Shown piece by piece: positions 39,910 to 55,916 of a DNA stretch of 64,000 nucleotides. The notes beneath the pieces were generated by a model. That model made no database searches and was not told where the DNA came from. It saw only the letters and a program-made list of their open reading frames with translations. The stretch's first letter is position 1. Every line of letters begins with the position of its first letter. The position numbers and the translations under genes are program-made. The DNA lies in NCBI GenBank assembly GCA_030668825.1, contig DAOVET010000002.1, forward strand, positions 2,571 through 66,570, given 5' to 3'. The stretch comes from Candidatus Heimdallarchaeota archaeon (GTDB taxonomy: Archaea; Asgardarchaeota; Heimdallarchaeia; Heimdallarchaeales; Heimdallarchaeaceae).

Positions 39910-39949
39910 TTTAATAAAGATTTTTACTAAAGAAATATTGGTAGAGTTA

Positions 39950-41803
39950 ATGAGTAAACCTGTGAAACCGTTCAACAAAGCTATTGTTTACATATTAATT
40001 GGTATTTTAGTCATTACTTCAATATTCGCTGTAATGATGTTTGGACCACGTCCTGGTCCACAAAGCAAGATGTTTAATTCTACACTTAGGTATTATACAA
40101 AAGGGACAGAAAAATTATTTTACACAGATTATGCTCAATCTATCGTTCAAGATATCAAAGAAGTAGGCATTTTTGTTACCGATTATCAGATGGAGTATTC
40201 AACATTTTTAGATCAGGTTATCGGAGCGAAAGAATATGAAATGGCAATAATTGAGATTGAGGGTCAAAATGCCCCTCATTTTGAATTTTTATTTAAGGAG
40301 GGTGCAAGTTTAAACGTTTTCAATTTTCAAAATGCAATGGATAATGGTACTACGCTTAATATAATCAACAATATAACTCAAGAAATGGATTTCTATGCAA
40401 GAAAAAATCTTTTCTTTACATTACAAGAACATCTGATGGATAATGTAGTTCCAATGGTACCCATTTTTACTCCAGCAAGAACATTTGCTTATTGGGATAA
40501 CTTAGAAGGGTTTACAAGTAAGTGGGGAATATCTGATAGCCTACCATACATGTCCTTTAATGGATTACATAGCAATCAAGAATCAGTTACTGAGCTAAAA
40601 ATAGGTATTGGAGGATGGTTTGATTTATGTCCTCTAACAATGAGGGAAGCTGGGGAGAAATTACTTATATCTCTTATCATGGATAAATTAGTTCATCTGG
40701 ATGAAAAAGGAGCTCCTACAAAATATGGGTTGATAGATAGTTGGGAATATCTTAATCAAACAACTTTATTGCTTCATGTAAGAGACAATGTTCAGTGGCA
40801 ACCTGATGTGGATGGGATTTTTACTAGTGAAGAGTTTTCAGTTTATGATGTTATTTTTACTTTAGATATAATTAGCAGTATACATGCAAACGTAAACTAT
40901 CAACTCTATAAGTGGATAGATTCTTATGAAGTATATAATGGTACAACAGTCGCAGTTCACATTGATTCAGTTCCAGAAACAGTAGAAAGGGAATCTTATG
41001 CTTTTGCCCTCGAAGATTTGTCAGTTTATAGTTACCCTGAATACTATTTGGATGTTGAGAGCACAATTGAAGAAATAGTTGAATCAGCGAGATGGATTAA
41101 GTATAGAGAAAATCCGTTTGGAACAGGAAAATACAAATTCAACGCAACGGAGAGTCATATAGATCTTACTGCTTTCTTAGAAAGATTTGACGGTTGGCAT
41201 GGAATAGGGGTAGATCCTGGTAAGACTACAAACCTAGTTTTTGAAACCATTGAAGCTCAAACTGTTCCTGATAGTTACTCAATGAACTTAGAATTACAAG
41301 AGGGGAGCAAGATAGACATAGCTGATTTTGGGAAGGATCCCGCAATGGAAATAGCAATACCTGATGATAACTTCAGGGTTGATTATAAAGTAGAAAACTC
41401 ATTAATTTTCATAGCATTCAATTTAGAGAATGATGTCTTTGGAGGAACTAATAACTATGTACCAACCAATGAGACAGGGGTGTCAAAAGCCTTAGCAATA
41501 CGTAAAGCTCTATCATCACTAGTCCATAAAACATTTCTGAATAATGCTTTTCATGAAGGAAAGTATAATATAACTGATTCACCAGTTTCTTGTTATTATA
41601 CAGATTATTATTATCAAAGTGTAACGAAGTATCCATACAGTATCTCTGAAGCCATTGAGTTCCTAAATTTGGCTGGATTCAACATATCAACAGAAACAAA
41701 TGGATCAGTAGAAGAATCAAGTTATGGAGTAATCAGTTCTGTTGTGGCTCTTGGAATCTTTACAGCAATTACGATTACATTAAGAAAAAGAAAACAAAGG
41801 TGA
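39950..41803 (+). CDS. secreted/anchored surface protein (618 aa) with N-terminal signal anchor and C-terminal TM plus RKRKQR tail
   Basis: 'MSKPVKPFNKAIVYILIGILVITSIFAVMMFG' and C-terminus 'VISSVVALGIFTAITITLRKRKQR'. Confidence 0.5.
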   Translation: MSKPVKPFNKAIVYILIGILVITSIFAVMMFGPRPGPQSKMFNSTLRYYTKGTEKLFYTDYAQSIVQDIKEVGIFVTDYQMEYSTFLDQVIGAKEYEMAIIEIEGQNAPHFEFLFKEGASLNVFNFQNAMDNGTTLNIINNITQEMDFYARKNLFFTLQEHLMDNVVPMVPIFTPARTFAYWDNLEGFTSKWGISDSLPYMSFNGLHSNQESVTELKIGIGGWFDLCPLTMREAGEKLLISLIMDKLVHLDEKGAPTKYGLIDSWEYLNQTTLLLHVRDNVQWQPDVDGIFTSEEFSVYDVIFTLDIISSIHANVNYQLYKWIDSYEVYNGTTVAVHIDSVPETVERESYAFALEDLSVYSYPEYYLDVESTIEEIVESARWIKYRENPFGTGKYKFNATESHIDLTAFLERFDGWHGIGVDPGKTTNLVFETIEAQTVPDSYSMNLELQEGSKIDIADFGKDPAMEIAIPDDNFRVDYKVENSLIFIAFNLENDVFGGTNNYVPTNETGVSKALAIRKALSSLVHKTFLNNAFHEGKYNITDSPVSCYYTDYYYQSVTKYPYSISEAIEFLNLAGFNISTETNGSVEESSYGVISSVVALGIFTAITITLRKRKQR

Positions 41804-41808
41804 AATAA

Positions 41809-42528
41809 GTGAATAGAATAAATGAAATAAAAAATCTGGATCTCGAAGGAAAACCTTTGATACAATCATTTAGTGGGAGTGGAGCAATAGGAACAATACT
41901 CTCTACATTTCTAGTGAAAGCATTGAAAATGGAACAAGTAGCAGTAATTCATGCAGATGAGCTACCACCAGTAGCAATAATCAAAGGGGGATTGATAGAA
42001 CAGCCGATAAGAATATTCCAAAATGACAAAATAGCTTTAATGTCTTGTGAAGTGAACATTCCTTACAATACTGTTTCAGATTTTATAGAAATGTTAATTG
42101 ATTTTTATATTAAAAGTGGAGTCTCGCACATCGTACCAGTGGGGGGATTACCTGTCTTACAAAACCAATTTGAAGAAATTGAATGTTATGGAATAGCAAA
42201 CAAACAAGAAACACTCACATTTCTAGAGGAAAAGGGAGTACAACTTCTAGAAGAAGGAATAGTATATGGAACAGTAGTTGAAACTTTAGAACTATGTACT
42301 ACAAAAGGGTTTGATTCGAGTTTTGCACTGTTGGTTGAATGTGACCCAAGTGTAGCTAGTTACGATTCAACAAAGAAACTAGTTCAAAATCTAGCTAAAA
42401 TATTTGATTTTAAATTTGATGAAGAAGAATTTGAAAGTGTTTCAAATATTATCAGAACAAGGATAGAAGAAAGCACAAGATTCTTAAGAGAAGAAGCAAT
42501 GGACAAAACAAGAGAAAGTCACCTCTAA
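41809..42528 (+). CDS. PAC2-family (proteasome assembly chaperone-like, COG1938) protein
   Basis: N-terminal 'LIQSFSGSGAIGTILSTFLVKAL' resembles the PAC2 GxPGxGxVG motif. Size is 239 aa. Confidence 0.4.
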   Translation: MNRINEIKNLDLEGKPLIQSFSGSGAIGTILSTFLVKALKMEQVAVIHADELPPVAIIKGGLIEQPIRIFQNDKIALMSCEVNIPYNTVSDFIEMLIDFYIKSGVSHIVPVGGLPVLQNQFEEIECYGIANKQETLTFLEEKGVQLLEEGIVYGTVVETLELCTTKGFDSSFALLVECDPSVASYDSTKKLVQNLAKIFDFKFDEEEFESVSNIIRTRIEESTRFLREEAMDKTRESHL

Positions 42529-42699
42529 GACAAAGACTTCCATTAGGTGAGTTAAGCTGTTTTTTCTCTAAAACCTTGAATCTGAAAAGAATGGGGTTTT
42601 TTGTCGCGTTTTAACCTCTCAACAAAGATTACAAAAAAGTTTAAATATGTTCAAGGACAATTTTACTTGGTTAATGGCAGGCTATTTAGGAGCCAAATG

Positions 42700-43020
42700 G
42701 TTAGGTCAAAAAGGGACTGCAAACTGAACAGGAAGAGATATCCGATGCTCAGGGACAAGGTTGAACCCCTTTTTAGATGGTTTGAACCCCCATTTGGGCT
42801 TAGTTAAGACCTCCTAAGCCTGAAATCCCCCAGAACCAGACTTCGGTCTGGAATCAGACACTTATTTTGTCTGAAAAAAAAGGACCAGACATCTTCTGTC
42901 TGCCAGAAAGGTATGGTCTTGCTTGACCAGATCCTGGAACCCCCCTCAACCAAAACCCCGAAGCATCGAGTTAGAATAGCCTTCCTGTTCAGGCAGAAAA
43001 CCCTTTAGGGTTTCTTAACC
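42700..43020. ncRNA. GC-rich (about 45% against a roughly 31% background) hairpin-dense noncoding island; candidate structured RNA of unknown class
   Basis: At least six hairpins: GGCTTAG/CTAAGCC (42797-42820); CCAGAC-UUCG-GTCTGG (42836-42851); CAGACA/TGTCTG (42855-42873 and 42886-42902); TGGTC/GACCA (42914-42929); AAACCC-TTTA-GGGTTT plus T-run (42998-43013). Repeated 'GAACCCC' and 'CCAGA' words. The strand is undetermined. Confidence 0.3.
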
Positions 43021-43100
43021 TCTTTTCCTTTTAATTTCTGTTCATTGATTTTTTGTGTTTTTTTTGTGTTTTTAAGCTATATTGCAATAATAATATCATT

Positions 43101-45278
43101 ATGAAAAATTCAGATGCAAATATAGACCTTAGTAAGCTTCTAAATGATTCATACATAAGTGATCAATTCAATAACCTAGCTAAAGAAAAGAAGAAATTTA
43201 TTGAAGAGTTGACAGATGAGGAAAAGAAGATTTATACTGAAACTATATCTTATATTTTCACAGAAGAAAAATCTGATGCTAAAGTGTCTCGTAGTTTTGC
43301 AGAACCCTTTCAGGTGACATGGAGAAAAATACACTGCCAAAAAGATTTCTTGCGCACTGCTATTTTACCCAAAATCACAAAAGATGTTCTTGTTAAGGGT
43401 TTTCCTACAAGAATAGGAAGCCACCCTGGGTTTGATGATGTCTTCTTAGGAGTTGATTCCAAAGGAAAATTTGTCTTTGGAGTATTTGAACTGAAAACAA
43501 ACAAGATTGGAAGTACTTCCCATAGACTCGATAAAGGAACCGAAGCAAGCAAATTGATAGCATTTAATTTGCGAAAAATGAGTACTAAATTTGTTGAAAA
43601 ACTAGTTCTTGATGGTGTGGATTTGAAAAAGGCTCAACGTATTGGAAACGCTCTATTTAATAGATTCAGAATGTCAGCAACTGCAATCGGTTTTGATTTT
43701 CAAAGAAAAGTATCAAGTATGGATATTGTTAAACTATTCCATAATTATTTTGATATACAGCTTATAAATAAAATTCTTGAAGCTGCAATTAAACAAAATC
43801 AGCTAATATCTTTAATAAAAACCTGCTATGCTTTCAAGAAGGAAATCAAAAACAAATATGTTACTGTTGTTAAAGATAAAACTACTGATGTCACAAATCT
43901 AATCAATCTAAATTACAAATACAAAAAAGGTAAAAAAATTGAAATTCCTATCAGTGGTGATTTCTTTAGGATTGATTATGATTTACATACCAAGGAGTTT
44001 AAATTTCCGCAGTTTTCTAGCTCTGCTTTAGGTGTTACTACTTTATCATTTGAGCAGAAAAGAGCTTATTTCAGTTTGAATAAACTAATTAGAAAAGCAC
44101 TGAAGAAAGTTGAGCTATCAATTGTGGATGAAAGTGGGGAATTATTGCAAACAAATGAAATAATTAAAAGATTAAATTCAATGCAATCATTTGTGTATAA
44201 AGCACTGATTAAATCAAGAGTTTTTGATGATTTTCAGGTTTTTCATAAAGGTACAATGTTTTTCTTTCTTGAAACTTTATCAAGTGAGAGTAATGAGAAG
44301 AAAATATCTAGATATTTGAAGAATTATTCAAGCTATAAAGGAATAGCTAATTATCATTATCATCAAAAATGGATAGTTCCTTCTATTTTAGACTTAGGTA
44401 TTTTTGTGGGAAATTTAAAAGAAGAAAATGAAAACTCGCGTAAATTCAGATTATTTCTGTATAAACATCTACTTGATGGAAGTTCTACTGATACAAAAGA
44501 TATGGATATTGAAGAGATTGAAGAGCTTATAACCTCAAATTCTGAATTAAGAGATTATCTTATTGGAAATTTCAGACGTGATATAAGATTACCTGATGGT
44601 TATTTCTGGACTCAAGCAATAAATTCCACACACTTGAAGAAAGCTTTGGTATTTTGTAATGTAAGAGATAGCAAACCCAAAAAGATGTATGGTTGTAATT
44701 TATATACAAGCTATGATTTTCAATACCTTCTAAAGGATTTGGAACTCGATTCCATACTCCTTCAAAATCCTATTACATTTGGAATTAATGAAGGTAGGTT
44801 AGTAGCAGATTTCAATACAGATAGGAATGTTAAGATTGCAAAAGTATGGATAGAATTTTTATCAGAAACCACAGATATTCCAAAGAATACACTACAAAGA
44901 CTCAATACTCATCTAGGACCTGGTGGTGGGATAGATCTATTATATCCACAAACTAACTGTGAATTACTCAGAATGTTGGTTGTAATTCTATTAAAATTCC
45001 AAGAAAATTGGGACAAATTAACATTATACATTATTCAAGAAATAAAAACAAAACAAGTACAATGGGAAATTGAAACTTTAAAAAAGAACAACCCTGTTAT
45101 ATTTGTTAACAAAAGGAATCAAATAACAATTAATGGTGAAGAAGCAATCATAAGATTAGGAACATTAGATGGAACTAATTGGAGAACAACAAGACCATTA
45201 TACTGTTTAGCAAACAGCTCTTGTTGGTTTAATAATATCATCTCTATCTTCAAGAGAGCATACCAAGAAATTATTTAA
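43101..45278 (+). CDS. large hypothetical protein (725 aa) with N-terminal Hjc-like PD-(D/E)xK nuclease core
   Basis: 'HPGFDDVFLGVDSKGKFVFGVFELKTNK' parallels the Hjc motif 'PDIIALKSG-VIILIEMKSRK'. The remaining roughly 570 aa are unrecognised. The track ORF starts at 43053. Confidence 0.5.
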   Translation: MKNSDANIDLSKLLNDSYISDQFNNLAKEKKKFIEELTDEEKKIYTETISYIFTEEKSDAKVSRSFAEPFQVTWRKIHCQKDFLRTAILPKITKDVLVKGFPTRIGSHPGFDDVFLGVDSKGKFVFGVFELKTNKIGSTSHRLDKGTEASKLIAFNLRKMSTKFVEKLVLDGVDLKKAQRIGNALFNRFRMSATAIGFDFQRKVSSMDIVKLFHNYFDIQLINKILEAAIKQNQLISLIKTCYAFKKEIKNKYVTVVKDKTTDVTNLINLNYKYKKGKKIEIPISGDFFRIDYDLHTKEFKFPQFSSSALGVTTLSFEQKRAYFSLNKLIRKALKKVELSIVDESGELLQTNEIIKRLNSMQSFVYKALIKSRVFDDFQVFHKGTMFFFLETLSSESNEKKISRYLKNYSSYKGIANYHYHQKWIVPSILDLGIFVGNLKEENENSRKFRLFLYKHLLDGSSTDTKDMDIEEIEELITSNSELRDYLIGNFRRDIRLPDGYFWTQAINSTHLKKALVFCNVRDSKPKKMYGCNLYTSYDFQYLLKDLELDSILLQNPITFGINEGRLVADFNTDRNVKIAKVWIEFLSETTDIPKNTLQRLNTHLGPGGGIDLLYPQTNCELLRMLVVILLKFQENWDKLTLYIIQEIKTKQVQWEIETLKKNNPVIFVNKRNQITINGEEAIIRLGTLDGTNWRTTRPLYCLANSSCWFNNIISIFKRAYQEII

Positions 45279-46431
45279 CATAATTTGGTTCTTCCCCCTT
45301 ATCTTCTAGATCTTGTTGTTCAGTTGGATATACTGTCTTTCTTGACGATTTCACTATTTTACTAAAAACTCTATAACTACCAATAGAAACCAAGATAATT
45401 GAGAGAATGATGAGAGCTTTCAGCATAATGTCAAGCCAGAGATTTAAGGAGTGTTTCTGAACATCTTCAGGATTTAACACCAACATGAAATTAGAAGGGT
45501 AAAACTCATAGAGAGTGCTTAAAACCAACAATAATACTATCCTTAGTGTAAAGAATATTGTTATTATCAAAGCTGTTCTTCCTACAACCCACAATGACGG
45601 ATACTTTTCTTTGTTTAAAACTCCCCTTATAGAATTGGATTTTCCTCTTATTTTCCTATAATGGTAATAGATTGAACTTGTATATTCTACATTAGGGTTT
45701 TTCGATAATTTTCTCTGCACTCCGAAAATAAATTGAATAACATGATAAGAAAACCCAGCAAGAGCTATATAAAAACAACCTATTGAAAAATAGTGGAAAA
45801 TGTCATAGAGTAAACACCAAGTGTAAGAAATTAACTGTGGAAAATAGAAGTAAGGATTAGTATATAAGAAACTAAACATAAAAACCGAAATGAGAAGAAA
45901 AATTATTTTCCTCACAAACATGTTATCGTCATTATAACTGTGAGCTAGTCTGTTTCCTACTCTATTCTCAATTTCTGTTACTTCACGTGACATCTTATTA
46001 TAACCAATAATATTAAACAGGGCTAAACCTACAAACACACCAATAGTTAATGCCCAATTAATCTCAAATGGATTGGAACGAGTAAAGTCGAAATATTCTG
46101 TAAAATTTATTGAAGTAGATTCATCATAGAACAGTAAAAACAACTTATTAGATGAGTTAATGTATTGATTTAGGAGTTTAATCACCAAAAGAGTATCAAC
46201 TAATACACTAAGACCCCTACGAATTCGACAATTTTCAGTTATCTCAAAATCATTAATCGTCACTTCAAAACCAATGATTTTTGGTAATTTCTTTAGTTCT
46301 ACGTGAACTTCTTTGTAATCTTCTAGAACTTCTATATTTTCAATAATTATGTCCTCTACAGATCCTTGAGCTGTTTTAGTATTTAGGAATATAATAACGA
46401 ATAAGAGAGTAATCAACAAGCATCTTTTCAT
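45271..46431 (-). CDS. polytopic membrane protein (signal peptide plus about 6 TM helices)
   Basis: 'MKRCLLITLLFVIIFLNTKTAQG' and multiple hydrophobic helices. Its 3' end overlaps the 43101-45278 gene by 8 nt (convergent). Confidence 0.45.
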   Translation of the reverse strand: MKRCLLITLLFVIIFLNTKTAQGSVEDIIIENIEVLEDYKEVHVELKKLPKIIGFEVTINDFEITENCRIRRGLSVLVDTLLVIKLLNQYINSSNKLFLLFYDESTSINFTEYFDFTRSNPFEINWALTIGVFVGLALFNIIGYNKMSREVTEIENRVGNRLAHSYNDDNMFVRKIIFLLISVFMFSFLYTNPYFYFPQLISYTWCLLYDIFHYFSIGCFYIALAGFSYHVIQFIFGVQRKLSKNPNVEYTSSIYYHYRKIRGKSNSIRGVLNKEKYPSLWVVGRTALIITIFFTLRIVLLLVLSTLYEFYPSNFMLVLNPEDVQKHSLNLWLDIMLKALIILSIILVSIGSYRVFSKIVKSSRKTVYPTEQQDLEDKGEEPNYVK

Positions 46432-46546
46432 TATATATTTATAGAAAAAAGTGCATATATACACCACAAAAATATCTTACAAAAATATTCGATATGGAGG
46501 GAAACTTTAAAGTATTAACTTGAGAATTAGAGGGTTAAGATGATGA

Positions 46547-47041
46547 AGAATTCTTGTAGACAATCAAGAAATTCTTCATTATACTGAAAATCAACTGGCT
46601 GATTACAGATGTAAAACTGTAGGTTTAATCTATCAGTCTTACAATTTAGCGCAGTTCTTGACTGTCAAAGAAAATATAGAGTTTCCAATGTTATTGGCAA
46701 AAACACCACTAGAAAAAAGAGAAAAACGTATTGAAGAGCTAACAGAATTTCTAGAAATTAGTAGATACATTGAGCAAAAACCTGAATTCTTGAGTGGAGG
46801 GGAACAACAACGAGTTGCGATTGCTATTGCCTTAGCAAATAATCCTCCAATAATATTAGCTGATGAGCCTACAGGTAATATTGATGTAGAAACAGCAGAA
46901 ACAGTTTACACCAATTTATCTCATATGTGCCAAATCTATAACACAACTCTTGTGATAGCCTCACATGATCCAAAAGCCTCAGAATATACAGAAAGAGAGG
47001 TAATTCTAACAGAATTAGAATCCAATAAGATAAGAAGGTGA
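46547..47041 (+). pseudogene. 5'-truncated ABC transporter ATP-binding protein (MacB/LolD-like), lacking Walker A
   Basis: The frame opens after a TGA at 46544-46546 and reads '[47 protein letters not shown]...[32 protein letters not shown]...SHD'. Q-loop, signature, Walker B and H-loop are present. There is no P-loop and no ATG. Confidence 0.55.
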
Positions 47042-47195
47042 AAATTAGTAGAAGAAAGAAACTTATCGAATATAGAAAAGCCTGTGATGATTTATGTAAA
47101 TTTAATGGAGCTAGCTATGTTCCTTTAAATTGAAGGTGAGTTATAATGATATGTAAATACGAATTATTCACTTTTTTGTTTTTGAATTATGGAAC

Positions 47196-48611
47196 TTAAA
47201 AATATTTTTCTAGTTTCTTAGTAGAGAGAACCAGTACAATTAAAGAAATTGAAATGGTGCTGTATCTCTTCTGAGATTTAGAATTCAAATCAGAAGTAAA
47301 ACGAAGACTATATCTGTTCAAATTAAAAAAATCTATTTCTGATATTGGAATACGATAATAGTAAATAGAACTTGGTCCCCAAGTAGCAGAAGTTTTTTTA
47401 CTCCTATCAAAACTAGACCAAGCAAAATGGAAATAGTTTTCACTTAGATCGCAGTGAGCGTAAAATTCATTGTATTTTGATGTACTTGTTAATTGAACTT
47501 CCTCAAAACTCTCTCCATCGTATTTACCCAAGAATATGTCCATTTGATCACTATTGTTTAAGAAAGTTCTTCGTGTATATACAAAACGAAAAGTGCCATC
47601 TTCAAGAACGCAAATAGAGTCATCATAAAAAATCATGTTACCATAAAAGCTGACTATTTCTTGAGTAGTAGAATAAGTAGAGTTGAAAACTTTTGTAAGA
47701 AAAAGACGACTGATATTAGTTTCATGGCCACTTTCATAATAAAATACATTGAATGTGTTATCAGAAGGAATTATAGCTATAGAATATTGGGGAGGATTAC
47801 CTATTCCCAATTTATAAAGTTCCCAACCGTTTTCTGGCCAATTAATAGCTAAATAAGGATGCATATTGTTTTCATTTATATAGTTCCCCCATAGCAAAGC
47901 TATAGTAGAATTCACAACTTTGAAATCGCCAGGAGCTACTGAAAAATCATCAACGATTTCGGGTAACACCGTATGCATGAATATACCCTTGTTTTCTGTG
48001 CCATTGTAGATAACAGGTGTTTGAACACCAACGGTACTTCCATTTATTTGAAAAAGCTGATGCGTGATGAATGCAAACACAGCATCTCCAGAACCAGAAA
48101 ATAGCCAGTTTAAAACAGGTTTTCTCACACCTACGCTACAATTGTAGGGCACATTTTCTAGAGCTGGATGTTCCTCCCAGGTATTATTGATTACTGTTAA
48201 AACCTCCCCTAGATCGTTTTCATATCCAGTTGTTGCATAAATATAAATAAAAGGTCTTTTTTGTGGGTCTAATCCAATTCTTATTTGAAAAAAAGTACCT
48301 AAAACCATCGAATTAAATCTTGGAATGAAAGCTATAGTGTCTTCCTTGAGATTTAATCTGGTATAGATCAAGTCTATGTCGTCTCCGATATCAGATGTAG
48401 CATTAGAGAAACAGAAATGGGTTATGTTATCATTTTCTACAACCATGTCTGATAGAATACTTGCATTCCATAAAGCATTGGGATAAACATATTTATCAGT
48501 AATTGGTTTCTTTGGTTGTTCGATAACTAGGTAATATATAGGTAAAGCAATCGCAAGGCTAATACTTATTAAAATCCCTATTGAAATAACAATTCTCAGA
48601 TACTTTTGCAT
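47196..48611 (-). CDS. secreted protein (471 aa) with N-terminal TM/signal and hydrophobic C-terminus
   Basis: 'MQKYLRIVISIGILISISLAIALPIYYLVI'. C-terminus 'ISISLIVLVLSTKKLEKYF'. Many N-x-S/T sequons. Confidence 0.45.
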   Translation of the reverse strand: MQKYLRIVISIGILISISLAIALPIYYLVIEQPKKPITDKYVYPNALWNASILSDMVVENDNITHFCFSNATSDIGDDIDLIYTRLNLKEDTIAFIPRFNSMVLGTFFQIRIGLDPQKRPFIYIYATTGYENDLGEVLTVINNTWEEHPALENVPYNCSVGVRKPVLNWLFSGSGDAVFAFITHQLFQINGSTVGVQTPVIYNGTENKGIFMHTVLPEIVDDFSVAPGDFKVVNSTIALLWGNYINENNMHPYLAINWPENGWELYKLGIGNPPQYSIAIIPSDNTFNVFYYESGHETNISRLFLTKVFNSTYSTTQEIVSFYGNMIFYDDSICVLEDGTFRFVYTRRTFLNNSDQMDIFLGKYDGESFEEVQLTSTSKYNEFYAHCDLSENYFHFAWSSFDRSKKTSATWGPSSIYYYRIPISEIDFFNLNRYSLRFTSDLNSKSQKRYSTISISLIVLVLSTKKLEKYF

Positions 48612-48818
48612 TAGCTCACCTAATAGTCGTTCAATACATCTTATATAGCTTTTCTCGCATTCTACAGTTTGCCTTATATTAAAATTTCAAGATTATAAGT
48701 ATTATTTAGAGATTCTCTTTTAATTTGGAAATGTTTCAATACTCAACAAATCACTTTTAAATTTATAATCCTATCAGTATTGTTTGGAGATGATGATTTT
48801 ACAAGCACAAAAATTGTG

Positions 48819-50483
48819 CTATATCTTGCTTTTTCTTTTCGAACTAAATTTGAAATAACCAAATACAGCTAGTGGGATTAGTACAACTAAAGAAAGAAAC
48901 GAGTAGTAAATGTTATTATTTCTATAGATTGGAGGTTCAGAAAGAGGATAAAGGTCTTGTGCATTTGCAAATCCATCTATATAATAGCTTCCCACTACAA
49001 CAAAATAGTCAGTCCAGTAATTCCCTTCTTCTGATTCTTCATCGTACCAAATATTATTTACACCATCGTCTTTAGCTTGAGCAGTGTTAAAATATTGATT
49101 ATTTTCTATGAAAGAATTATGATGTATTGAATTATTCCTTGAGTATAAATCCAGAACTACTCCCCATAGAAGGTTTTCACTTAAAAAATTGTAACTAAGT
49201 TCATTTTTGGAAGAGCTTTCTAGAACTATACCTGCAAAATTTGAGTTACACGTATTATTGATGATCGCCATTCCTATGGAACCATAAGTATAGATTCCGA
49301 GATTCCAATTATCAGAGCAAAAATTGTTTTGAATTGTTCCTTTAATACAATAACGTAGGGTTATACCTGTATGAGTATAGGATAGGTTTTGGTTCAATAT
49401 TTGAATATTGGAACAATCTGCAAGAATTAACTGACCGTAAATAGGTTGGGTAATTTTTAGATCATCTAAACCCACAAAATAACCAAATTCTTTGTCATTA
49501 ACCGAATTATTTTGGACAATGTAGGAGTGATAGTCTTCTCTGTTTAGTTCATAGAATTCGAAACCACTTCTATACAGAGCATTGTTAGTTATTTTTGACT
49601 CCTCAGCATCGATTAAGTATATCCCAATTCCATTACCAGAACAAATATTATTGTCAACTGTTACATTCCCCCCATTTACTATGACAATCCCCATACCAGA
49701 GCAATGGTTGTTTGAAACAAAAGAATCATTGGATTCATAAAGCGCTATATTAGTCTGGCTATTATCTGTGCACAAGTTATTTACTACAGTTGATTTGTTG
49801 GATTGAGATAAACTTATGCCCCCATGGTAAGTATTTTCATAACATCTATTATCAGCTACGTACGATAAAGGTGATTCTTCCACAACAATCCCTCCCATAC
49901 TATTTGAATTGCAAGTGTTATTATTAATCAAACACGCTTCACTTAGGTCTACAAATATCCCTAACCAACCATCCTGAATACACCGATTGTTTTCAATTTG
50001 TGATTCAGAAGAGTTCCCAACATGAATACCAACAAAGCTATTATAGTTGCAAGTATTGTTAATTATTTTCGTGCCTGGTGAATGATTGATTCGAATGCCT
50101 GTTGCAGAATTTCCCACACAAATGTTGTCTTCTATTATAGTTGTTTCTTTCCTTACAGAATCTATAACTATACCGCCCCTATAAGCATCTACAAAACAAT
50201 TCTGAATTTTAAAATATTTAGTCGTATTATGGATATAGATTCCTTTATCCTCAGAGGTTGTTATGTTCAAATTTTCAATCCTGAAAGGTTCTTGAGGAGT
50301 CCCAGTACCTAATAATCCATAATCTGTGAAATTTGAATCATTTGTTATTATAATTGGTAATGAGTCTAAGTAAGAAAAAGAATAGGGATAAGTAGTACTT
50401 TCTGAAACAATTATATTCTGAACAGTAATCTCAGTTGAGCTTATTAATATAACTAAAATAAACATTTGATATAATTTATTCAT
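48819..50483 (-). CDS. secreted right-handed parallel beta-helix (PbH1) repeat protein with C-terminal TM plus basic tail
   Basis: Signal 'MNKLYQMFILVILISS'. Repeated 'NNxCxxNxxxGIxxxxS' beta-helix units. C-terminus 'FLSLVVLIPLAVFGYFKFSSKRKSKI'. Confidence 0.6.
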   Translation of the reverse strand: MNKLYQMFILVILISSTEITVQNIIVSESTTYPYSFSYLDSLPIIITNDSNFTDYGLLGTGTPQEPFRIENLNITTSEDKGIYIHNTTKYFKIQNCFVDAYRGGIVIDSVRKETTIIEDNICVGNSATGIRINHSPGTKIINNTCNYNSFVGIHVGNSSESQIENNRCIQDGWLGIFVDLSEACLINNNTCNSNSMGGIVVEESPLSYVADNRCYENTYHGGISLSQSNKSTVVNNLCTDNSQTNIALYESNDSFVSNNHCSGMGIVIVNGGNVTVDNNICSGNGIGIYLIDAEESKITNNALYRSGFEFYELNREDYHSYIVQNNSVNDKEFGYFVGLDDLKITQPIYGQLILADCSNIQILNQNLSYTHTGITLRYCIKGTIQNNFCSDNWNLGIYTYGSIGMAIINNTCNSNFAGIVLESSSKNELSYNFLSENLLWGVVLDLYSRNNSIHHNSFIENNQYFNTAQAKDDGVNNIWYDEESEEGNYWTDYFVVVGSYYIDGFANAQDLYPLSEPPIYRNNNIYYSFLSLVVLIPLAVFGYFKFSSKRKSKI

Positions 50484-50511
50484 TGTATACTTATCCCCTT
50501 TGTTATTTTAT

Positions 50512-50769
50512 TTATTGTGGTGTGATGCCCTCTATTGATAAACAGAATCCATTTCCATAATCATTCCATCTTGTTGGAGTTTGGTTTGCGTTGTAGTAAT
50601 TAACTGACCCTACATAATGATTATACCACCACCATGCATCTATGAAAATATAATCGAAATCTGCAGTTATTGAACCTGCATATCCATGTTCAGAAGGATT
50701 TCCATTCCAAGAATAGTGCAGAAAACCCTTTGGGGTTTCAACTTTTCTTAACTTTTCTTTGTTTTTCAT
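50512..50769 (-). CDS. small Trp/Tyr-rich hypothetical protein (85 aa)
   Basis: ORF 28 nt upstream of the PbH1 gene, 'DAWWWYNHYVGSVNYYNANQTPTRWNDYGNGF'. Confidence 0.3.
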   Translation of the reverse strand: MKNKEKLRKVETPKGFLHYSWNGNPSEHGYAGSITADFDYIFIDAWWWYNHYVGSVNYYNANQTPTRWNDYGNGFCLSIEGITPQ

Positions 50770-50922
50770 GAGTTTTTTTGATGTTTCACTTGTTCCATAA
50801 TTCTCTGAAAAAAAACTAAAATCTAGAAAATATTATTCTTGTTATTAGAAATTAGGTTTATGGCCTTTTTGTATAAATATTTATAGCTAAAACTAGTCAT
50901 TTATGTTTAAGGAGTGTTTTAA

Positions 50923-51729
50923 ATGGAAGAAGAATCTAAAGATGATTTACTAGAAGAAGCTGAAGAGGAGCTTAGTGAAGAAGTAAAGGAAGAACTCAAA
51001 GAAGAGCTTGAGGAGGAAGTAGAAGAGTTCAGTGAAGAAGAAAAAGAAGATCTCGAAGAAGAACTCGAAGAAGAACCTGAGGAAGAAATAGATGAGCTTG
51101 TAGAGGAACTTGAAGAAATTGCAGAAGATGAAGACGAAATAGAAGAGATCGAAGAAGAAGCAGTTGAAGAAGTAGTAGAAGAAGCTGTAGAGGATGTTGT
51201 CGAAGAAATTCTTGATGAAATAGATGAAGAAGTAGAAGAAGAGGTTCTTGAAGATATTGTGGAAGAAGTGGTTGAAGAAGCTGAAGATGAAGCTGAGGAA
51301 GTGCAAATTGTTTCTGAACCAGAATATAAATCTGAACCTGCGCCAGAAGGGATTCCAGAAGATATCAAGAAATTAGGTGGTAACATCCAAATTATTTTGA
51401 AAGATGTCGATGGTGATTTGATTCCATTTGGGTATCATTTACAGAAAGACAAACTAATTATCAAAGAAGATGAAGCAATGAAAGTTAAAATTGTGTTATC
51501 ATGGTTATACAAACAAAATAGGAGCGTAGAAGAGATTTCTGATGCCACAAAACTAAGCATCGAAGAGATTGAAAAAATACTCATAAATCCTTTATACTTC
51601 GGTAAGATTTACTTCGAAGGAGCACTTGTGAAAGGCAATCATGAACCCATATTAACTGAAAGATATTGCAAATTAAATGAAATAAATACTGATGAAATTG
51701 AGGAAAAATATCTTTCCACAAAGAAATAA
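50923..51729 (+). CDS. polyacidic (Glu-rich) protein with C-terminal serine-recombinase 'recombinase' domain and no resolvase catalytic domain
   Basis: The first approximately 130 aa are EExEEEL repeats. The C-terminus 'MKVKIVLSWLYKQNRSVEEISDATKLSIEEIEKILINPLYFGKIYFEGALVKGNHEPILTERYCKLNE' matches the large serine recombinase pattern (iL.NP.Y.G......G.HepIi..e.f..vq). Confidence 0.5.
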   Translation: MEEESKDDLLEEAEEELSEEVKEELKEELEEEVEEFSEEEKEDLEEELEEEPEEEIDELVEELEEIAEDEDEIEEIEEEAVEEVVEEAVEDVVEEILDEIDEEVEEEVLEDIVEEVVEEAEDEAEEVQIVSEPEYKSEPAPEGIPEDIKKLGGNIQIILKDVDGDLIPFGYHLQKDKLIIKEDEAMKVKIVLSWLYKQNRSVEEISDATKLSIEEIEKILINPLYFGKIYFEGALVKGNHEPILTERYCKLNEINTDEIEEKYLSTKK

Positions 51730-51840
51730 GATTAAGGAAATTTATGTGCGGAAGTCTTACTTCCTATTCCTTTTTTAATTGTACTTTTTAATTCTCAATT
51801 TTCGTACTTTTTCTTATTAGAATACACAGTTAAATTCTTT

Positions 51841-52158
51841 TTAGCTAATTCCTTCAGCTAATAAATCCCCAATTGTGTCAGCAGTCATACTAAAAAAGGA
51901 GATGAGATCCTCCTTTGAATGCAAGAGTTCATACAGATTTTTCATCGGTAAATCTTGTCCTTCATCATCAACAAAAACAATTTCATACCCTAAACCTTTC
52001 CCTAGGTTGCTTTGTTCTCTTAACCATTCTCTCTGTTCTTCAAAGAAATTCTGTAGAAATTCTTTAACATTGATTATATTACTTAACTTGTATCTAGTCA
52101 ATTCAAGTTTTTTCTCACTTTCTTCAGCATAGATTTTGAATACCATTTTCCATGTCAA
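51841..52158 (-). CDS. hypothetical protein (105 aa)
   Basis: ORF only. Confidence 0.3.
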   Translation of the reverse strand: MTWKMVFKIYAEESEKKLELTRYKLSNIINVKEFLQNFFEEQREWLREQSNLGKGLGYEIVFVDDEGQDLPMKNLYELLHSKEDLISFFSMTADTIGDLLAEGIS

Positions 52159-52341
52159 GTTTTACACCTTAGTTGTTTTCAACTACTAATGCTACATTTG
52201 ATATATAAACCGATGAATTACTTTCTCGTGCTTAAATATGAATCTACGCTGAATCGCTTATTGTAGCGTTTTTTCTGAACCAAAAACTATAAGTTTTTAA
52301 ACGTGCTTTCGACCACTAAAGTAGACAAGAAAGGTGATTAA

Positions 52342-52524
52342 ATGGGTCACGGATCGCTCCAAAAAGCAGGTAAAGTTAGAAAGCAAACTCCCAAAGTTGA
52401 AGGAAAAGAAAGACACAGTCCTATTCCCAGAAGGGGTCTAAGAAACAAATATGTTAAACGTGTTATTCTTGGTCGTTACGCTGGTCAAGCTCAGAGCATG
52501 GGAGCTAAACGTCGTTCCAGATAA
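52342..52524 (+). CDS. rps30e: ribosomal protein S30e
   Basis: 'GSLQKAGKVRKQTPKVEGKERHSPIPRRGLRNKYVKRV' matches the eukaryotic/archaeal S30e core (GSLARAGKVRGQTPKV..KEKKK..GRAKRR.QYNRRF). Confidence 0.8.
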   Translation: MGHGSLQKAGKVRKQTPKVEGKERHSPIPRRGLRNKYVKRVILGRYAGQAQSMGAKRRSR

Positions 52525-52555
52525 TATCTTCTATTTATTGAAAAACTGTTTTCAA

Positions 52556-54145
52556 ATGATTGATCGAGATAAAGCTCTAGTTGAAATTAAAGAAAGGCTA
52601 TTAATTTTAGAGGAGCCTAATAGAAAAATTCTGGATCAAGTCAAACGTGATATTGCTAAAAAATATAAACTGAAAGATTTTCCGAAGAACAGTGAAATTT
52701 TAGCAATTTGTGATACTGAAGAAAGAGAGTTACTACTTCCTGTTCTTATAAAACGTATTGTTCGAACTTTATCGGGAGTCGCGATTGTAGCTACAATGAC
52801 ACGTCCATGGGCGTGTCCTCATGGAAAATGTATTATGTGCCCTGGGGGCCCAGAAATTGAGAAACCTCAAAGTTATACTGGATATGAACCTACAACTATG
52901 AGGGGGATTCGAAACAATTTCGACCCTTATCTTCAAGTAACTGATAGAATGAAACAACTTGAATCTATAGGTCACTCAACTGAGAAAATAGATGCTATCA
53001 TCATGGGAGGAACCTTTACCAACCAACCTGTTGAATATCAATTATGGTTTATTCAACGAATGTTTGATGCTTTTAATGAAATTGATTCCAAAGACATTAA
53101 AGAAGCACATAAACTCAATGAAACAGCTGCTCACCGATGTATCGGTTTAACAGCTGAAACAAGACCTGATCAGATAAATCACGAGAAAATTAATCATCTT
53201 ATCGAATATGGCGTTACAAGATTAGAAATTGGGGTTCAGTCTGTGTTTGATGATATTCTAGAAAAAATGCAGCGAGGTCACGGAGTTAAAGAAACGGTTG
53301 CAGCTTTTCAGTTTATCAAGGATACTGGACTTAAGGTTACTGCACATATGATGCCTGGTCTTCCAGGATCAACATTCGAGAGAGATATTGAGTCTTTTGA
53401 AATTCTGTTTAATGATTCTAGATTCCGACCTGATGAGCTTAAAATCTACCCAACCATGGTAATTCCTGGAACTAAACTTTTCCAAGATTTTCAAAATGGA
53501 GAATATGAACCCTTAACTAACGAATCTGCTGCAAATTTAATTGCTAAAATAAAAGAATTAATTCCTCCTTATGTAAGAATCAAGAGAGTGCTTAGGGACA
53601 TACCTGCACATCAAATAGCTGCAGGTCCAAATAAGAGTGATTTGAGATTAGATATTCAAGCTATTCTCGAAAAACAAGGAAAGAAATGCCAGTGTATTCG
53701 TTGCAGAGAAGTAGGTCATATCATTTATAAAAAAGGAATAAAAATAGATCAGTCAAAGATTGAGTTAATTGAGCGGTCATATGAAGCCAGTGAAGGAGTC
53801 GAACATTTTCTATCTTTTGAAGAGACACAATGTGATGCCCTTATTGGATTTTTAAGATTAAGAGAGCTAAGTGATAACATTATTCGTCCAGAGTTTGACA
53901 AATCTACGATTATTGTAAGAGAACTACATGTATATGGGGAACTTCGAGGTTTGCAGGCTTTGAAACGTGGTTCCCTACAATGGCAACATAGAGGGTATGG
54001 AAAAAAGTTACTTTCAAGAGCAGAAGAAATTGGGAAAGAAAAAGATTATTCTAAGATTTCAGTAATTTCTGGTGTTGGAGTAAGAGAATACTATCAAAAA
54101 CAAGGATATGCAAAGGATGGCCCCTATATGTCAAAAAAATTGTAA
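52556..54145 (+). CDS. elp3: Elp3-like radical SAM plus GNAT tRNA-modification enzyme (archaeal Elp3 homologue)
   Basis: Radical SAM cluster region 'TRPWACPHGKCIMCPGG' and a C-terminal acetyltransferase-like domain. The track ORF starts at 52451 inside rps30e; the start at 52556 (MIDRDK) avoids the overlap. Confidence 0.8.
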   Translation: MIDRDKALVEIKERLLILEEPNRKILDQVKRDIAKKYKLKDFPKNSEILAICDTEERELLLPVLIKRIVRTLSGVAIVATMTRPWACPHGKCIMCPGGPEIEKPQSYTGYEPTTMRGIRNNFDPYLQVTDRMKQLESIGHSTEKIDAIIMGGTFTNQPVEYQLWFIQRMFDAFNEIDSKDIKEAHKLNETAAHRCIGLTAETRPDQINHEKINHLIEYGVTRLEIGVQSVFDDILEKMQRGHGVKETVAAFQFIKDTGLKVTAHMMPGLPGSTFERDIESFEILFNDSRFRPDELKIYPTMVIPGTKLFQDFQNGEYEPLTNESAANLIAKIKELIPPYVRIKRVLRDIPAHQIAAGPNKSDLRLDIQAILEKQGKKCQCIRCREVGHIIYKKGIKIDQSKIELIERSYEASEGVEHFLSFEETQCDALIGFLRLRELSDNIIRPEFDKSTIIVRELHVYGELRGLQALKRGSLQWQHRGYGKKLLSRAEEIGKEKDYSKISVISGVGVREYYQKQGYAKDGPYMSKKL

Positions 54146-54228
54146 GCTAACAAATTGTTTGTTTACAAAGCTAAATTTATATTTGCTTCTTCTTGATATT
54201 TTTTAGAAAACAAATTACAGGTTGGAAT

Positions 54229-55221
54229 ATGTCTCAAAGCAATCGTTTAGCAATTCTATCTGATGTAGAACAAATTTTCCATACTAATGGATATAGTATT
54301 GCTAAATTATCTCAAGGAAGTAAAGCCTGTTTTGATATTATTGCTAAAAAAAGAGACCAGCTTATTATTATCAAAGTTGAACCCTATATTGATAATTTCA
54401 ACCGTGACAATTCTTTTGAACTAAAGAACATTGCAACCTTTCTTAATGCATCTCCTTTAATTATAGGTGAGCGAGGAAGACGTTTTTCAGAAATTGATGA
54501 TGGCTTAGTTTTACTAAGGTATGGTATTCCTGTTGTTAGTAGTGAAACTTTTACCAATCTAATTTCTCATGGAGTACCTCCAATTATATATTGTAGTAAA
54601 GGTGGATATTTTGTTCAAATTAACAGAAAAATACTCCGTCAAGCAAGACTGGAAAAAAATCTGAGTTATGCAGATTTAGCACATCTTGTGGGAGTTTCTA
54701 GAAGAACAATTTACGAATATGAGCATTCCATAAACCCAACTCCTTCAACAGCAGCAAAACTGGAAGAAATATTAGATTCCCCGGTAGCACAAGGAATCAA
54801 AATCTTCAATATTGACATTGAGAAAGAAACAAGACCACAATATTCAACTGAAAATCTTTCGAATTTTAAGGAGGAAATATCTGGAATTCTTGAAGAATTG
54901 GGCTTTTTTACTCAATTTTGGACTCGTCAATCTCCTTTTGATGCTTTTGGAGAGCAACAAAACCTAGATATTCATAGTGGGATGAACATTCTAGTCTGTG
55001 TAGACGATCTTCAACAAAAGAATATAGCTGAACGCGCAATTCTTACCCAAGATATAGCTACTTTGACTAAAAGAAGAGCAATAATGATTGTTGAAGACTC
55101 TGATAACCCTCTAACTCAAAACATACCAACTTTTACTGTAGATGAACTTAATCAGATGAAGAAAGCTTTTGATTTAGTTAAAAATTGGGTTAAAAAATAT
55201 TCGAATATAAAAGAAAGTTAA
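54229..55221 (+). CDS. HTH (XRE-type) transcriptional regulator with N-terminal domain (COG1395-like)
   Basis: 'LRQARLEKNLSYADLAHLVGVSRRTIYEYEH' is an XRE helix-turn-helix. The track ORF starts at 54193. Confidence 0.55.
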   Translation: MSQSNRLAILSDVEQIFHTNGYSIAKLSQGSKACFDIIAKKRDQLIIIKVEPYIDNFNRDNSFELKNIATFLNASPLIIGERGRRFSEIDDGLVLLRYGIPVVSSETFTNLISHGVPPIIYCSKGGYFVQINRKILRQARLEKNLSYADLAHLVGVSRRTIYEYEHSINPTPSTAAKLEEILDSPVAQGIKIFNIDIEKETRPQYSTENLSNFKEEISGILEELGFFTQFWTRQSPFDAFGEQQNLDIHSGMNILVCVDDLQQKNIAERAILTQDIATLTKRRAIMIVEDSDNPLTQNIPTFTVDELNQMKKAFDLVKNWVKKYSNIKES

Positions 55222-55230
55222 GTTGAGCAG

Positions 55231-55914
55231 TTACTTTTGCCCAACAATCATAATGTGATCTTTTTCGTAAGGTTCTAAATTTACTGTTTCAATAATCTTC
55301 AGACCAAAAGATTCAATCTTATCAATTACTTCTTTGAATATTATTTTTGGATCTTTGGTTACATCAATACTTCTAGATTTTACAGCTAAAAAGAAATATC
55401 CGCCATCTTTAAGGTAGGTTTTAACATTAATATCAAGAATCTCTGCTTGAGATGGTTGAGCAACATCCTCATAGACAATATCTACTTGGGGAACTATGTT
55501 GCTATACTCTTCAGGAAATCTTGCGTCTGCATGAAGCGGTATAATATTTTTCCTTCTTTCAGCAACAACTATGAGATCTCCCATTGATCGAGCAGAAAAT
55601 TCTACTGCAAAGATTGAACCTTCATCGCCTAAAATATCCGAAATGTGAGATACGGTTGTTCCAGAAGCGGCACCTAAATACAAAATTTTACTGCCTTTGG
55701 TTAGAGGGAATGTTTTAAGTTTCTTGAAAATAGCTGCACCTAGTTTGCTTTTGTAGGGGTCAAAAGTCCGATATTCGATTCCTTCTTCAGTTAATAATCT
55801 CTCTGTATATACTTTCTTACCAGGATCAGCATTAATCGTTGCTAATCTCTTATTTCCGTCTCTAGTAGTTACCCAAAACAAATTTCCAAATTTATGATTT
55901 TCTAGGTTTGACAT
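55231..55914 (-). CDS. flpA: fibrillarin (C/D box sRNP 2'-O-methyltransferase)
   Basis: 'KILYLGAASGTTVSHISDILG' SAM motif, 'VDIVYEDVAQP', 227 aa. It lies immediately downstream of nop5. Confidence 0.9.
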   Translation of the reverse strand: MSNLENHKFGNLFWVTTRDGNKRLATINADPGKKVYTERLLTEEGIEYRTFDPYKSKLGAAIFKKLKTFPLTKGSKILYLGAASGTTVSHISDILGDEGSIFAVEFSARSMGDLIVVAERRKNIIPLHADARFPEEYSNIVPQVDIVYEDVAQPSQAEILDINVKTYLKDGGYFFLAVKSRSIDVTKDPKIIFKEVIDKIESFGLKIIETVNLEPYEKDHIMIVGQK

Positions 55915-55916
55915 TT

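Follow-up and report, generated by a model that had tools for sequence, protein, structure and literature searches.

A genomic island at the 3' end of a predicted structured RNA gene in Heimdallarchaeaceae, with a candidate mobility protein

The locus

We analysed a 64,000-nt window of contig DAOVET010000002.1 from a Candidatus Heimdallarchaeota archaeon; all positions below are given in the frame of this window unless another contig is named. The region of interest lies between a PAC2-family gene and rps30e, the gene of ribosomal protein S30e. It contains, in this order, a hairpin-rich segment with a predicted structured RNA gene, a gene encoding a 725-amino-acid (aa) protein with a nuclease-like motif, a membrane protein gene, an ABC ATPase pseudogene, open reading frames (ORFs) for proteins considered secreted or anchored, and a gene encoding a polyacidic protein with a recombinase domain (Table 1). 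A previous sequence-only reading listed these six items in the same order, and all of them are there. It considered the entire stretch 42529-52200, approximately 10 kb, as accessory. The accessory character was upheld, but the extent was not, as the variable stretch is 43015-50739. This stretch is very probably a lineage-specific genomic island residing in an insertion hot spot, and the same high confidence applies to island and hot spot alike. The finding is real and more specific than what had been noted before: an old insertion at the 3' end of an RNA gene, within a hot spot spanning the family, accompanied by a candidate mobility protein.

Table 1. Features of the PAC2-rps30e region (positions in the 64,000-nt window)
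Feature	Position	Strand	Evidence and remarks
PAC2-family gene, conserved left flank	41809..42528	+	Pfam PF09754, E 5.6e-25
Putative archaeal promoter, BRE/TATA-like motif AAAAAAG-TTTAAATA (BRE, transcription factor B recognition element)	42633..42647	+	Upstream of the RNA
Predicted structured RNA gene, ~345 nt, insertion target	42669..43016	+	Conservation, RNAalifold; ends inferred
Left direct repeat, attL-like	42993..43014	+	GCAGAAAACCCTTTAGGGTTTC; identical to the RNA 3' end
Inserted island	43015..50717	.	Missing in L007 (blastn); compositional outlier
725-aa protein, candidate mobility enzyme	43101..45278 (ORF from 43053, 741 aa)	+	First island gene
Multi-pass membrane protein, 398 aa, cargo	45271..46467	-	5 hydrophobic segments
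ABC ATPase pseudogene	46495..47041	+	No Walker A; 2 in-frame TGA, 46541-46546
471-aa protein with N-terminal anchor, cargo	47196..48611	-	Hydrophobic segment, residues 3-32
554-aa parallel beta-helix NosD-like surface protein, cargo	48819..50483	-	PF13229 E 1e-46, PF05048 E 9e-43
85-aa ORF, probably not a gene	50512..50769	-	Begins in the flank, crosses the right repeat; no hydrophobic segment; 0 homologues
Right direct repeat, attR-like	50718..50739	+	GCAGAAAACCCTTTGGGGTTTC; runs into the flank that follows the single copy of L007
Polyacidic protein with recombinase domain only	50923..51729	+	Genus-conserved right flank
Conserved 105-aa ORF, right flank	51841..52158	-	86-93% aa identity in L007, L009-L011; 60% in L028
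Ribosomal protein S30e (rps30e), right flank	52342..52524	+	PF04758, E 1.7e-10

Boundaries and composition of the island

The window was compared with contigs of related organisms, labelled L007-L034. Six contigs from separate samples are 99.9% identical to the region, and the PAC2 gene was found at 93-95% identity in five related GTDB species (L007-L011). Positions 39000-56000 were aligned with the relatives by blastn. In L007 (94% nucleotide identity) the segment 39005-43064 is directly joined to 50718-55998, and approximately 7.7 kb are missing. The two alignments overlap by about 60 nt, and the overlap contains a 22-nt direct repeat, of which L007 has a single copy. The PAC2 and rps30e genes of L007 are thus contiguous except for the RNA, the polyacidic gene and the 105-aa ORF, while other relatives differ. 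The hairpin-rich segment, the polyacidic gene and the 105-aa ORF are all retained in L007 and L009-L011, and the hairpin-rich segment also in L008; these features therefore belong to the flanks and not to the island. In particular, the hairpin-rich segment, previously taken for accessory content, is core: it is very strongly conserved, appears to be an RNA gene, and is the target of the insertion.

The repeat GCAGAAAACCCTTTRGGGTTTC has two matches in the window, at 42993 and 50718, when up to three mismatches are allowed, with none expected by chance. The island proper consists of 43015-50717 and one copy of the repeat. No terminal inverted repeats were seen at the ends of the element. Scanning of viral contigs for the att core produced three chance matches only, in high-GC contigs (GC 53-59%).

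The island also deviates in composition from the rest of the window, whose G+C content is about 33%. Its G+C content is 0.310, compared to 0.337 ± 0.004 in windows of the same size, and its tetranucleotide distance is 0.0145, compared to 0.0083 ± 0.0009 with the maximum at 0.0115. The island has both the lowest GC and the largest tetranucleotide deviation among 82 windows of 7.7 kb, which overlap and hence are not independent. The three checks that the sequence-only reading had proposed, namely synteny, repeats at the borders and composition, thus all agree with an accessory element; conserved gene order without compositional deviation is not what the relatives show.

The target RNA gene

The left junction coincides with the 3' end of the predicted RNA gene. 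The segment 42529-43052 is relatively G+C-rich, and its plus strand folds at -152 kcal/mol with z = -3.6 relative to shuffled sequence, as against z = -1.3 for the minus strand. The part from about 42630 to 43014 is nearly invariant among ten homologues. In aligned columns the RNA is 97%, 88% and 84% identical in L007, L028 and L032, respectively, compared to 94%, 67% and 69% for the DNA of the PAC2 gene; despite the latter values, L028 and L032 share with the window long blocks of identical RNA sequence. The putative promoter motif is invariant in the ten homologues and is retained in L028, where the flanks are approximately 67% identical. A variable spacer, about 20 nt long, separates the motif from the conserved RNA body, and a T-rich tract is situated 3' of the last hairpin of the RNA.

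The structure predicted by RNAalifold has a rod-like closing stem with helices AAAGGG/CCCUUU, CUGC/GCAG, the 12-bp helix CUGAACAGGAAG/CUUCCUGUUCAG, and CGAUGCU/AGCAUCG, followed by distal hairpins. Among 72 predicted pairs, four show compensatory double changes, and several show one-sided G-U changes. The covariation support, judged from the RNAalifold tables, is thus moderate; it is not strong because most helices never vary. Hairpins are gained and lost as whole units. The hairpin at 42907-42938 is missing from L008, L010, L011, L016 and L018, and is replaced in L032 by another sequence that, by eye, also could form a hairpin. An additional hairpin follows CCGAUGCUU in L018, L028 and L032, and its stem sequence differs between the three.

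The 22-nt repeat corresponds to the 3' strands of the two outermost, closing helices of the RNA. Insertion without regeneration of this sequence would destroy the RNA.

The RNA does not resemble known families. ARAGORN found no tRNA or tmRNA genes in the window, and no Rfam family matched the whole window at the gathering score. A permissive search (E <= 10) with the hairpin-rich segment of the window and that of L028 yielded noise only. We considered RNase P RNA, the signal recognition particle RNA, an omega-RNA or bridge-RNA-type guide, and a telomerase-like template. Each was rejected on at least one of the following grounds: the topology, the variability of the CAAAACCCC stretch between relatives, and the occurrence of the RNA and the 725-aa protein family each without the other (L007, L023).

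Two further observations concern this segment. The predicted unpaired regions of the RNA contain three GAACCCC motifs and one AUCCCCC, and the hairpin loop GACCUCC resembles the anti-Shine-Dalgarno sequence; that such C-rich motifs bind G-rich RNA or a poly(C)-binding protein is pure speculation. Immediately after the PAC2 stop codon, at 42529-42605, there is a separate 77-nt hairpin, GACAAAGACTTCCATT...AATGGGGTTTTTTGTC. It shows lower conservation than the RNA and possibly forms the end structure of a transcript.

The hot spot in related genomes

The interval from the RNA gene to the 105-aa ORF and rps30e is an insertion hot spot across Heimdallarchaeaceae. It was observed in an empty state, with cassettes of one or two genes divided by further copies of the RNA 3' end, and with islands of approximately 7 kb carrying unrelated cargo. 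Content other than that of the window was found at this site in L008-L011, L016, L017, L028 and L032, and in each relative the bulk of it encodes membrane, secreted or surface proteins. This also fits the description of the locus as a fast-evolving surface-protein island, offered earlier as an alternative to an integrated element.

In L009, three copies of the RNA 3' end (50-80 nt) bracket two one-gene cassettes. The cassettes of this array (copies and cassettes together at L009, 11182-12528) encode proteins of 223 and 124 aa and resemble an integron array without a recombinase gene. A protein of 117-132 aa is a recurrent cassette in L008, L009, L011 and L016. Other small genes at the site in L008, L010, L011 and L016 encode membrane or uncharacterised proteins. 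In L017, a partial copy of the RNA is followed by a beta-helix gene and a membrane protein gene. The far more distant lineage L028-L030 has a different island of approximately 7.4 kb with S8 and C13 peptidases and anchored proteins, lying between the complete RNA and a second copy, about 145 nt, of the RNA's 3' half.

The same pattern might be explained without any insertion, if an ancestral region of surface-protein genes had been lost to varying extents and L007 had suffered a deletion between pre-existing repeats. Repeats flanking a segment can mediate deletion as well, and L007 is the only truly empty site that we saw. However, the cargo sets of different relatives do not overlap, the composition of the island deviates from the rest of the window, and the repeated unit is always the RNA 3' end, which in L009 forms tandem arrays. 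Moreover, the protein family of the first island gene marks an insertion in an unrelated gene, fumB, described below. We consider loss from an ancestral region extremely improbable.

Two further observations bear on variability around this locus. In L008 there is a second insertion site upstream of the RNA promoter, where a direct repeat of about 45 nt (L008, 2850-2899 and 4300-4345) flanks a 1.4-kb insert. This insert encodes a 253-aa secreted protein and a 162-aa protein in which a winged helix and membrane segments are possible, as judged by eye. In L009 only, an additional gene for a 270-aa protein (L009, 13548-14360, minus strand) is situated between the polyacidic gene and the 105-aa ORF, and its position may be a further variable point of the locus.

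The 725-aa protein and its family

The first gene of the island encodes a 725-aa protein whose family is small. A word-index search with this protein retrieved the protein itself, one relative with 91% identity and one fragment. Exhaustive HMMER search of 1.84e9 representative proteins yielded seven family members, and all those that are named come from metagenome-assembled genomes of Candidatus Heimdallarchaeaceae. The proteins P0003, P0004, P0005 and P0008 carry an extra C-terminal tail with FFxWITTNW. C-terminal truncation of the protein in the window was considered and dropped, as the full-length protein P0017 has the same end point.

The nuclease motif noted previously is indeed there. 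The protein contains GFDD...FELK, similar to the PD-(D/E)XK pattern, with VEMK, IEQK or IELK in place of FELK in homologues; the pattern GFDD...(F/V/I)E(L/M/Q)K is conserved in P0001, P0006, P0008 and P0017. The region containing it is modelled with a predicted local distance difference test score (pLDDT) below 50 and has no profile match. A nuclease fold did not find a counterpart in the libraries: scans of Pfam, NCBIfam, PHROG, PADLOC and PDB gave no match that would back one for the 725-aa protein, and Pfam, NCBIfam, PHROG and PADLOC had no family of any kind for it. The C-terminal domain, which is well modelled (pLDDT 80.5), has no significant structural neighbours.

The genomic positions of the homologues are more informative. 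In L032 and L033, a full-length homologue of 725 aa with 43% identity is the only gene of a 2.3-kb insertion, bounded by the RNA and a repeat of the RNA 3' end of about 66 nt. In L023, L024 and L034, the genes of the fumarase beta and alpha subunits are separated by one gene only, which encodes a 906-aa homologue. Here the last 46 codons of fumB are duplicated (about 140 nt), and the displaced copy abuts fumA. The two copies have 70% nucleotide identity, and the displaced one is still open in frame, which suggests that selection acted on them in different lineages, where they diverged before being brought together. The single-gene insertions of the family span 2.3-3.1 kb. In L026, tRNA-Leu(TAG) is followed on the same strand, at a distance of 560 nt, by a homologue, and in L028 the RNA 3' end is directly adjoined by a C-terminal fragment of another.

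Thus, in two cases a gene of this family is all that an insertion contains between the target and the duplicate of its 3' end; the simplest reading is that the product of this gene is the agent of insertion. We lean, by a small degree, towards the 725-aa protein being a mobility enzyme. Candidates for its type are a homing-type nuclease with the PD-(D/E)XK-like motif and a site-specific recombinase.

One possibility is that the 725-aa protein is mere cargo with a defence or other accessory role, and that insertion is caused in trans by a conventional integrase, or by the host through homologous recombination of elements that carry a copy of the RNA 3' end. Indeed, no catalytic family or fold could be assigned to the protein, the cassettes of L009 and L017 are bracketed by RNA 3'-end copies and lack its gene, and homologous recombination could act on the repeats of L023 and L028, which measure about 140 and 145 nt, respectively. 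On the other hand, the two independent insertions in L032 and L023 consist of the gene and the target duplication only, which is hard to reconcile with passive cargo. The fumB copies are too diverged for a recent homologous crossover, and the repeat in the window is just 22 nt long. No defence families were found by PADLOC among the island proteins. We therefore regard the protein as unlikely to be mere cargo.

Age of the island

Rates of substitution were compared between the window and L012. The synonymous divergence (dS) is 0.17 for the 725-aa gene and 0.13 for the gene of the 398-aa membrane protein, comparable to 0.19 for the PAC2 gene in the flank. The island thus predates the split of the window and L012 lineages and has been passed on vertically since; it is old, as had been proposed. 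The ratios of nonsynonymous to synonymous divergence (dN/dS) are 0.25 and 0.20 for the 725-aa and 398-aa genes, respectively, which indicates that these two, the only testable genes of the island, are under purifying selection. The description of the stretch as decayed thus applies to the ABC ATPase only.

Cargo and flanking genes

The 398-aa membrane protein was recognised as such before, and has 94% aa identity in L012. It has no family match. The next item had been called a 5'-truncated ABC ATPase pseudogene, and this is correct. Of the profile, only positions of about 63-215 are covered by the open frame 46547-47041; the PF00005 match is limited to positions 75-136, and matches to the LolD and FtsE models start at about 95. 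The signature LSGGEQQR, the Walker B motif ILADEPT and the H-loop ASHD are retained. It is the single gene remnant in the stretch, where remnants in the plural had been suspected.

Three secreted or anchored proteins had been predicted to follow. Two of them stand. The 471-aa protein has no family matches in Pfam, NCBIfam or PHROG. The 554-aa beta-helix protein has two hydrophobic segments, one at residues 7-27 that would serve as signal or anchor at the N-terminus and one at residues 523-548 that would anchor the C-terminus; its weak paralogues were found in L017, at the same hot spot, and in L026 and L022. The third, the 85-aa ORF, is doubtful.

The polyacidic protein had been considered a relic of a recombinase and thus a clue to mobility. 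Aspartate and glutamate make up 58% of its first 140 aa, and it ends about 25 residues past a HEPIL motif. The recombinase domain was confirmed: the profile of the C-terminal domain (A5) matches that of the A118 serine integrase (4kis, 6dnw, residues 25-118, E 4e-5). Matches of the single sequence are marginal (Pfam, E 0.17; CcrA, 0.002; phrog_95, 0.001). This domain is all that the protein shares with large serine recombinases such as A118, Bxb1 and CcrA; unlike them, it has an acidic N-terminus and lacks the resolvase catalytic domain (no match to PF00239), the zinc ribbon and the coiled coil. Judging from its sequence, it is unable to catalyse recombination alone, and may be a DNA-binding protein.

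The clue to mobility did not hold. If elements with large serine recombinases had built the hot spot, the polyacidic protein could be their relic integrase. In addition to the domain homology, its gene is only 184 nt from the right repeat, and it is missing at the equivalent locus of L028, so that at greater depth it is accessory itself. However, the gene is situated outside the repeats and remains beside the empty site of L007, and its orthologues, whose C-terminal domains are 88-91% identical in L007 and L009-L011, make it a conserved gene of the genus. The islands of L028 and L032 arose without a polyacidic gene. A stand-alone 125-aa homologue in L022 (8001-8378; 56% identity), without the acidic tail, also speaks for a free-living DNA-binding protein and against a relic; it is located between three NosD/beta-helix genes on an unrelated contig. 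Together with the missing catalytic domain and zinc ribbon, this makes an origin of the hot spot from serine recombinase elements very improbable.

On the right, the 105-aa ORF has no family match and always adjoins rps30e. The end of rps30e is overlapped by 74 nt (52451-52524) by the longest Elp3-like ORF, and the true start of Elp3 is probably further downstream.

Discussion

The polymorphism of presence and absence, the border repeats, the deviating composition and the conservation of the RNA are demonstrated. The explanation that we prefer, and consider fairly probable as a whole, is that an old island is situated at the 3' end of the RNA gene, that the 725-aa protein is the enzyme of its insertion, and that the rest is cargo. 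Insertion at the RNA 3' end would duplicate the last 22 nt of the RNA. The left junction would keep the RNA intact, and the spare 22-nt copy would mark the right junction. The 725-aa protein, encoded just past the left junction, would drive the insertion, and a copy to replace the target 3' end would come with the element, in the manner of integrative elements that target tRNA genes. The remaining genes would be cargo, one of which, the ABC ATPase, has decayed.

Several points weigh against this explanation. Inside the repeats there is no tyrosine or serine recombinase, no transposase and no other known mobility gene in the Pfam, NCBIfam, PHROG, PADLOC and PDB scans. The RNA gene is a prediction made from DNA. 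The repeat in the window is short. Many cassettes of the hot spot have no member of the 725-aa family, and thus would need to be mobilised in trans or by another mechanism. The fragment in L028 is convergent with the RNA, whereas the gene in the window is in tandem with it. Finally, the island in the window could be composite, made of an element with the 725-aa gene and of older cassettes, with the internal repeat lost; no internal copy of the RNA remains within it.

The closest analogy is provided by islands at the 3' ends of tRNA and tmRNA genes. Among mobile elements of Heimdallarchaeum, HeimV1, HeimM2 and the aloposons integrate at tRNA genes (PMC8813620). Similar to such islands, the elements described here are patchily present, regenerate the RNA 3' end by a direct repeat, accumulate in tandem and deviate in composition, and a candidate mobility gene is located beside the junction. 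Unlike them, the target in the window is an RNA of approximately 345 nt without annotation by ARAGORN or Rfam, and a tyrosine or serine integrase is absent. The island is not an aloposon. Aloposons have tandem giant genes (3,000-6,000 aa) and a MinD/ParA-like ATPase, and integrate into tRNA genes (PMC8813620). Here the largest ORF is 725 aa, and there are no giant Otus or Ephialtes proteins, no ParA-like genes and no tRNA.

Another analogy is found in the fungal mitochondrial genes cob and atp6, where a free-standing homing-endonuclease ORF separates the gene from a displaced duplicate that covers the C-terminal part (PMC6279837). In the same way, in L023 and L032 a single ORF is situated between the intact target and a displaced, diverged copy of its 3' end, and the family protein has a nuclease-like motif. 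The differences are that the protein is neither LAGLIDADG nor GIY-YIG, that it is 725-906 aa long, that the host is an archaeon, and that in the window 5 kb of cargo are present.

Integrons are arrays of promoterless gene cassettes, and are said to have been reported in Archaea by Ghaly et al. in 2022. The one-gene cassettes of L009, each followed by a palindrome-containing copy of the site and stacked by a fixed platform, resemble them. However, the repeated site is an RNA 3' end and not attC, and the cassettes are oriented in both directions. An IntI tyrosine recombinase is missing too: neither the window nor the relatives that were read gave a Phage_integrase match at this locus.

More tentatively, and with some doubt prevailing, we propose that Heimdallarchaeaceae contain an unrecognised class of minimal self-inserting elements. 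Each would encode a single protein of 725-906 aa, a homing nuclease or site-specific integrase of a new type, that would direct insertion to gene 3' ends while providing a replacement 3' end. The protein has no detectable relative in sequence or fold in the libraries searched. The favoured target would be the new RNA of approximately 345 nt, and its site would have become an integron-like platform for surface-protein cassettes, of which some would be mobilised in trans.

Among archaea, the Heimdallarchaeia are usually placed nearest to eukaryotes, and to our knowledge their mobile elements and non-coding RNAs have barely been charted. The locus described here is a recombination hot spot with empty and filled alleles, at which genes of surface proteins are exchanged between close lineages. 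It includes a conserved RNA without an Rfam family, whose core blocks stay identical while neighbouring genes drop to 67% identity. It also provides a candidate new family of DNA-insertion enzymes, for which the 3' end of fumB and the palindrome AAACCCTTTAGGGTTT at the RNA 3' end are defined targets. Should this enzyme be confirmed, prokaryotic elements would be known to integrate site-specifically by one more mechanism, in addition to the few recognised so far.

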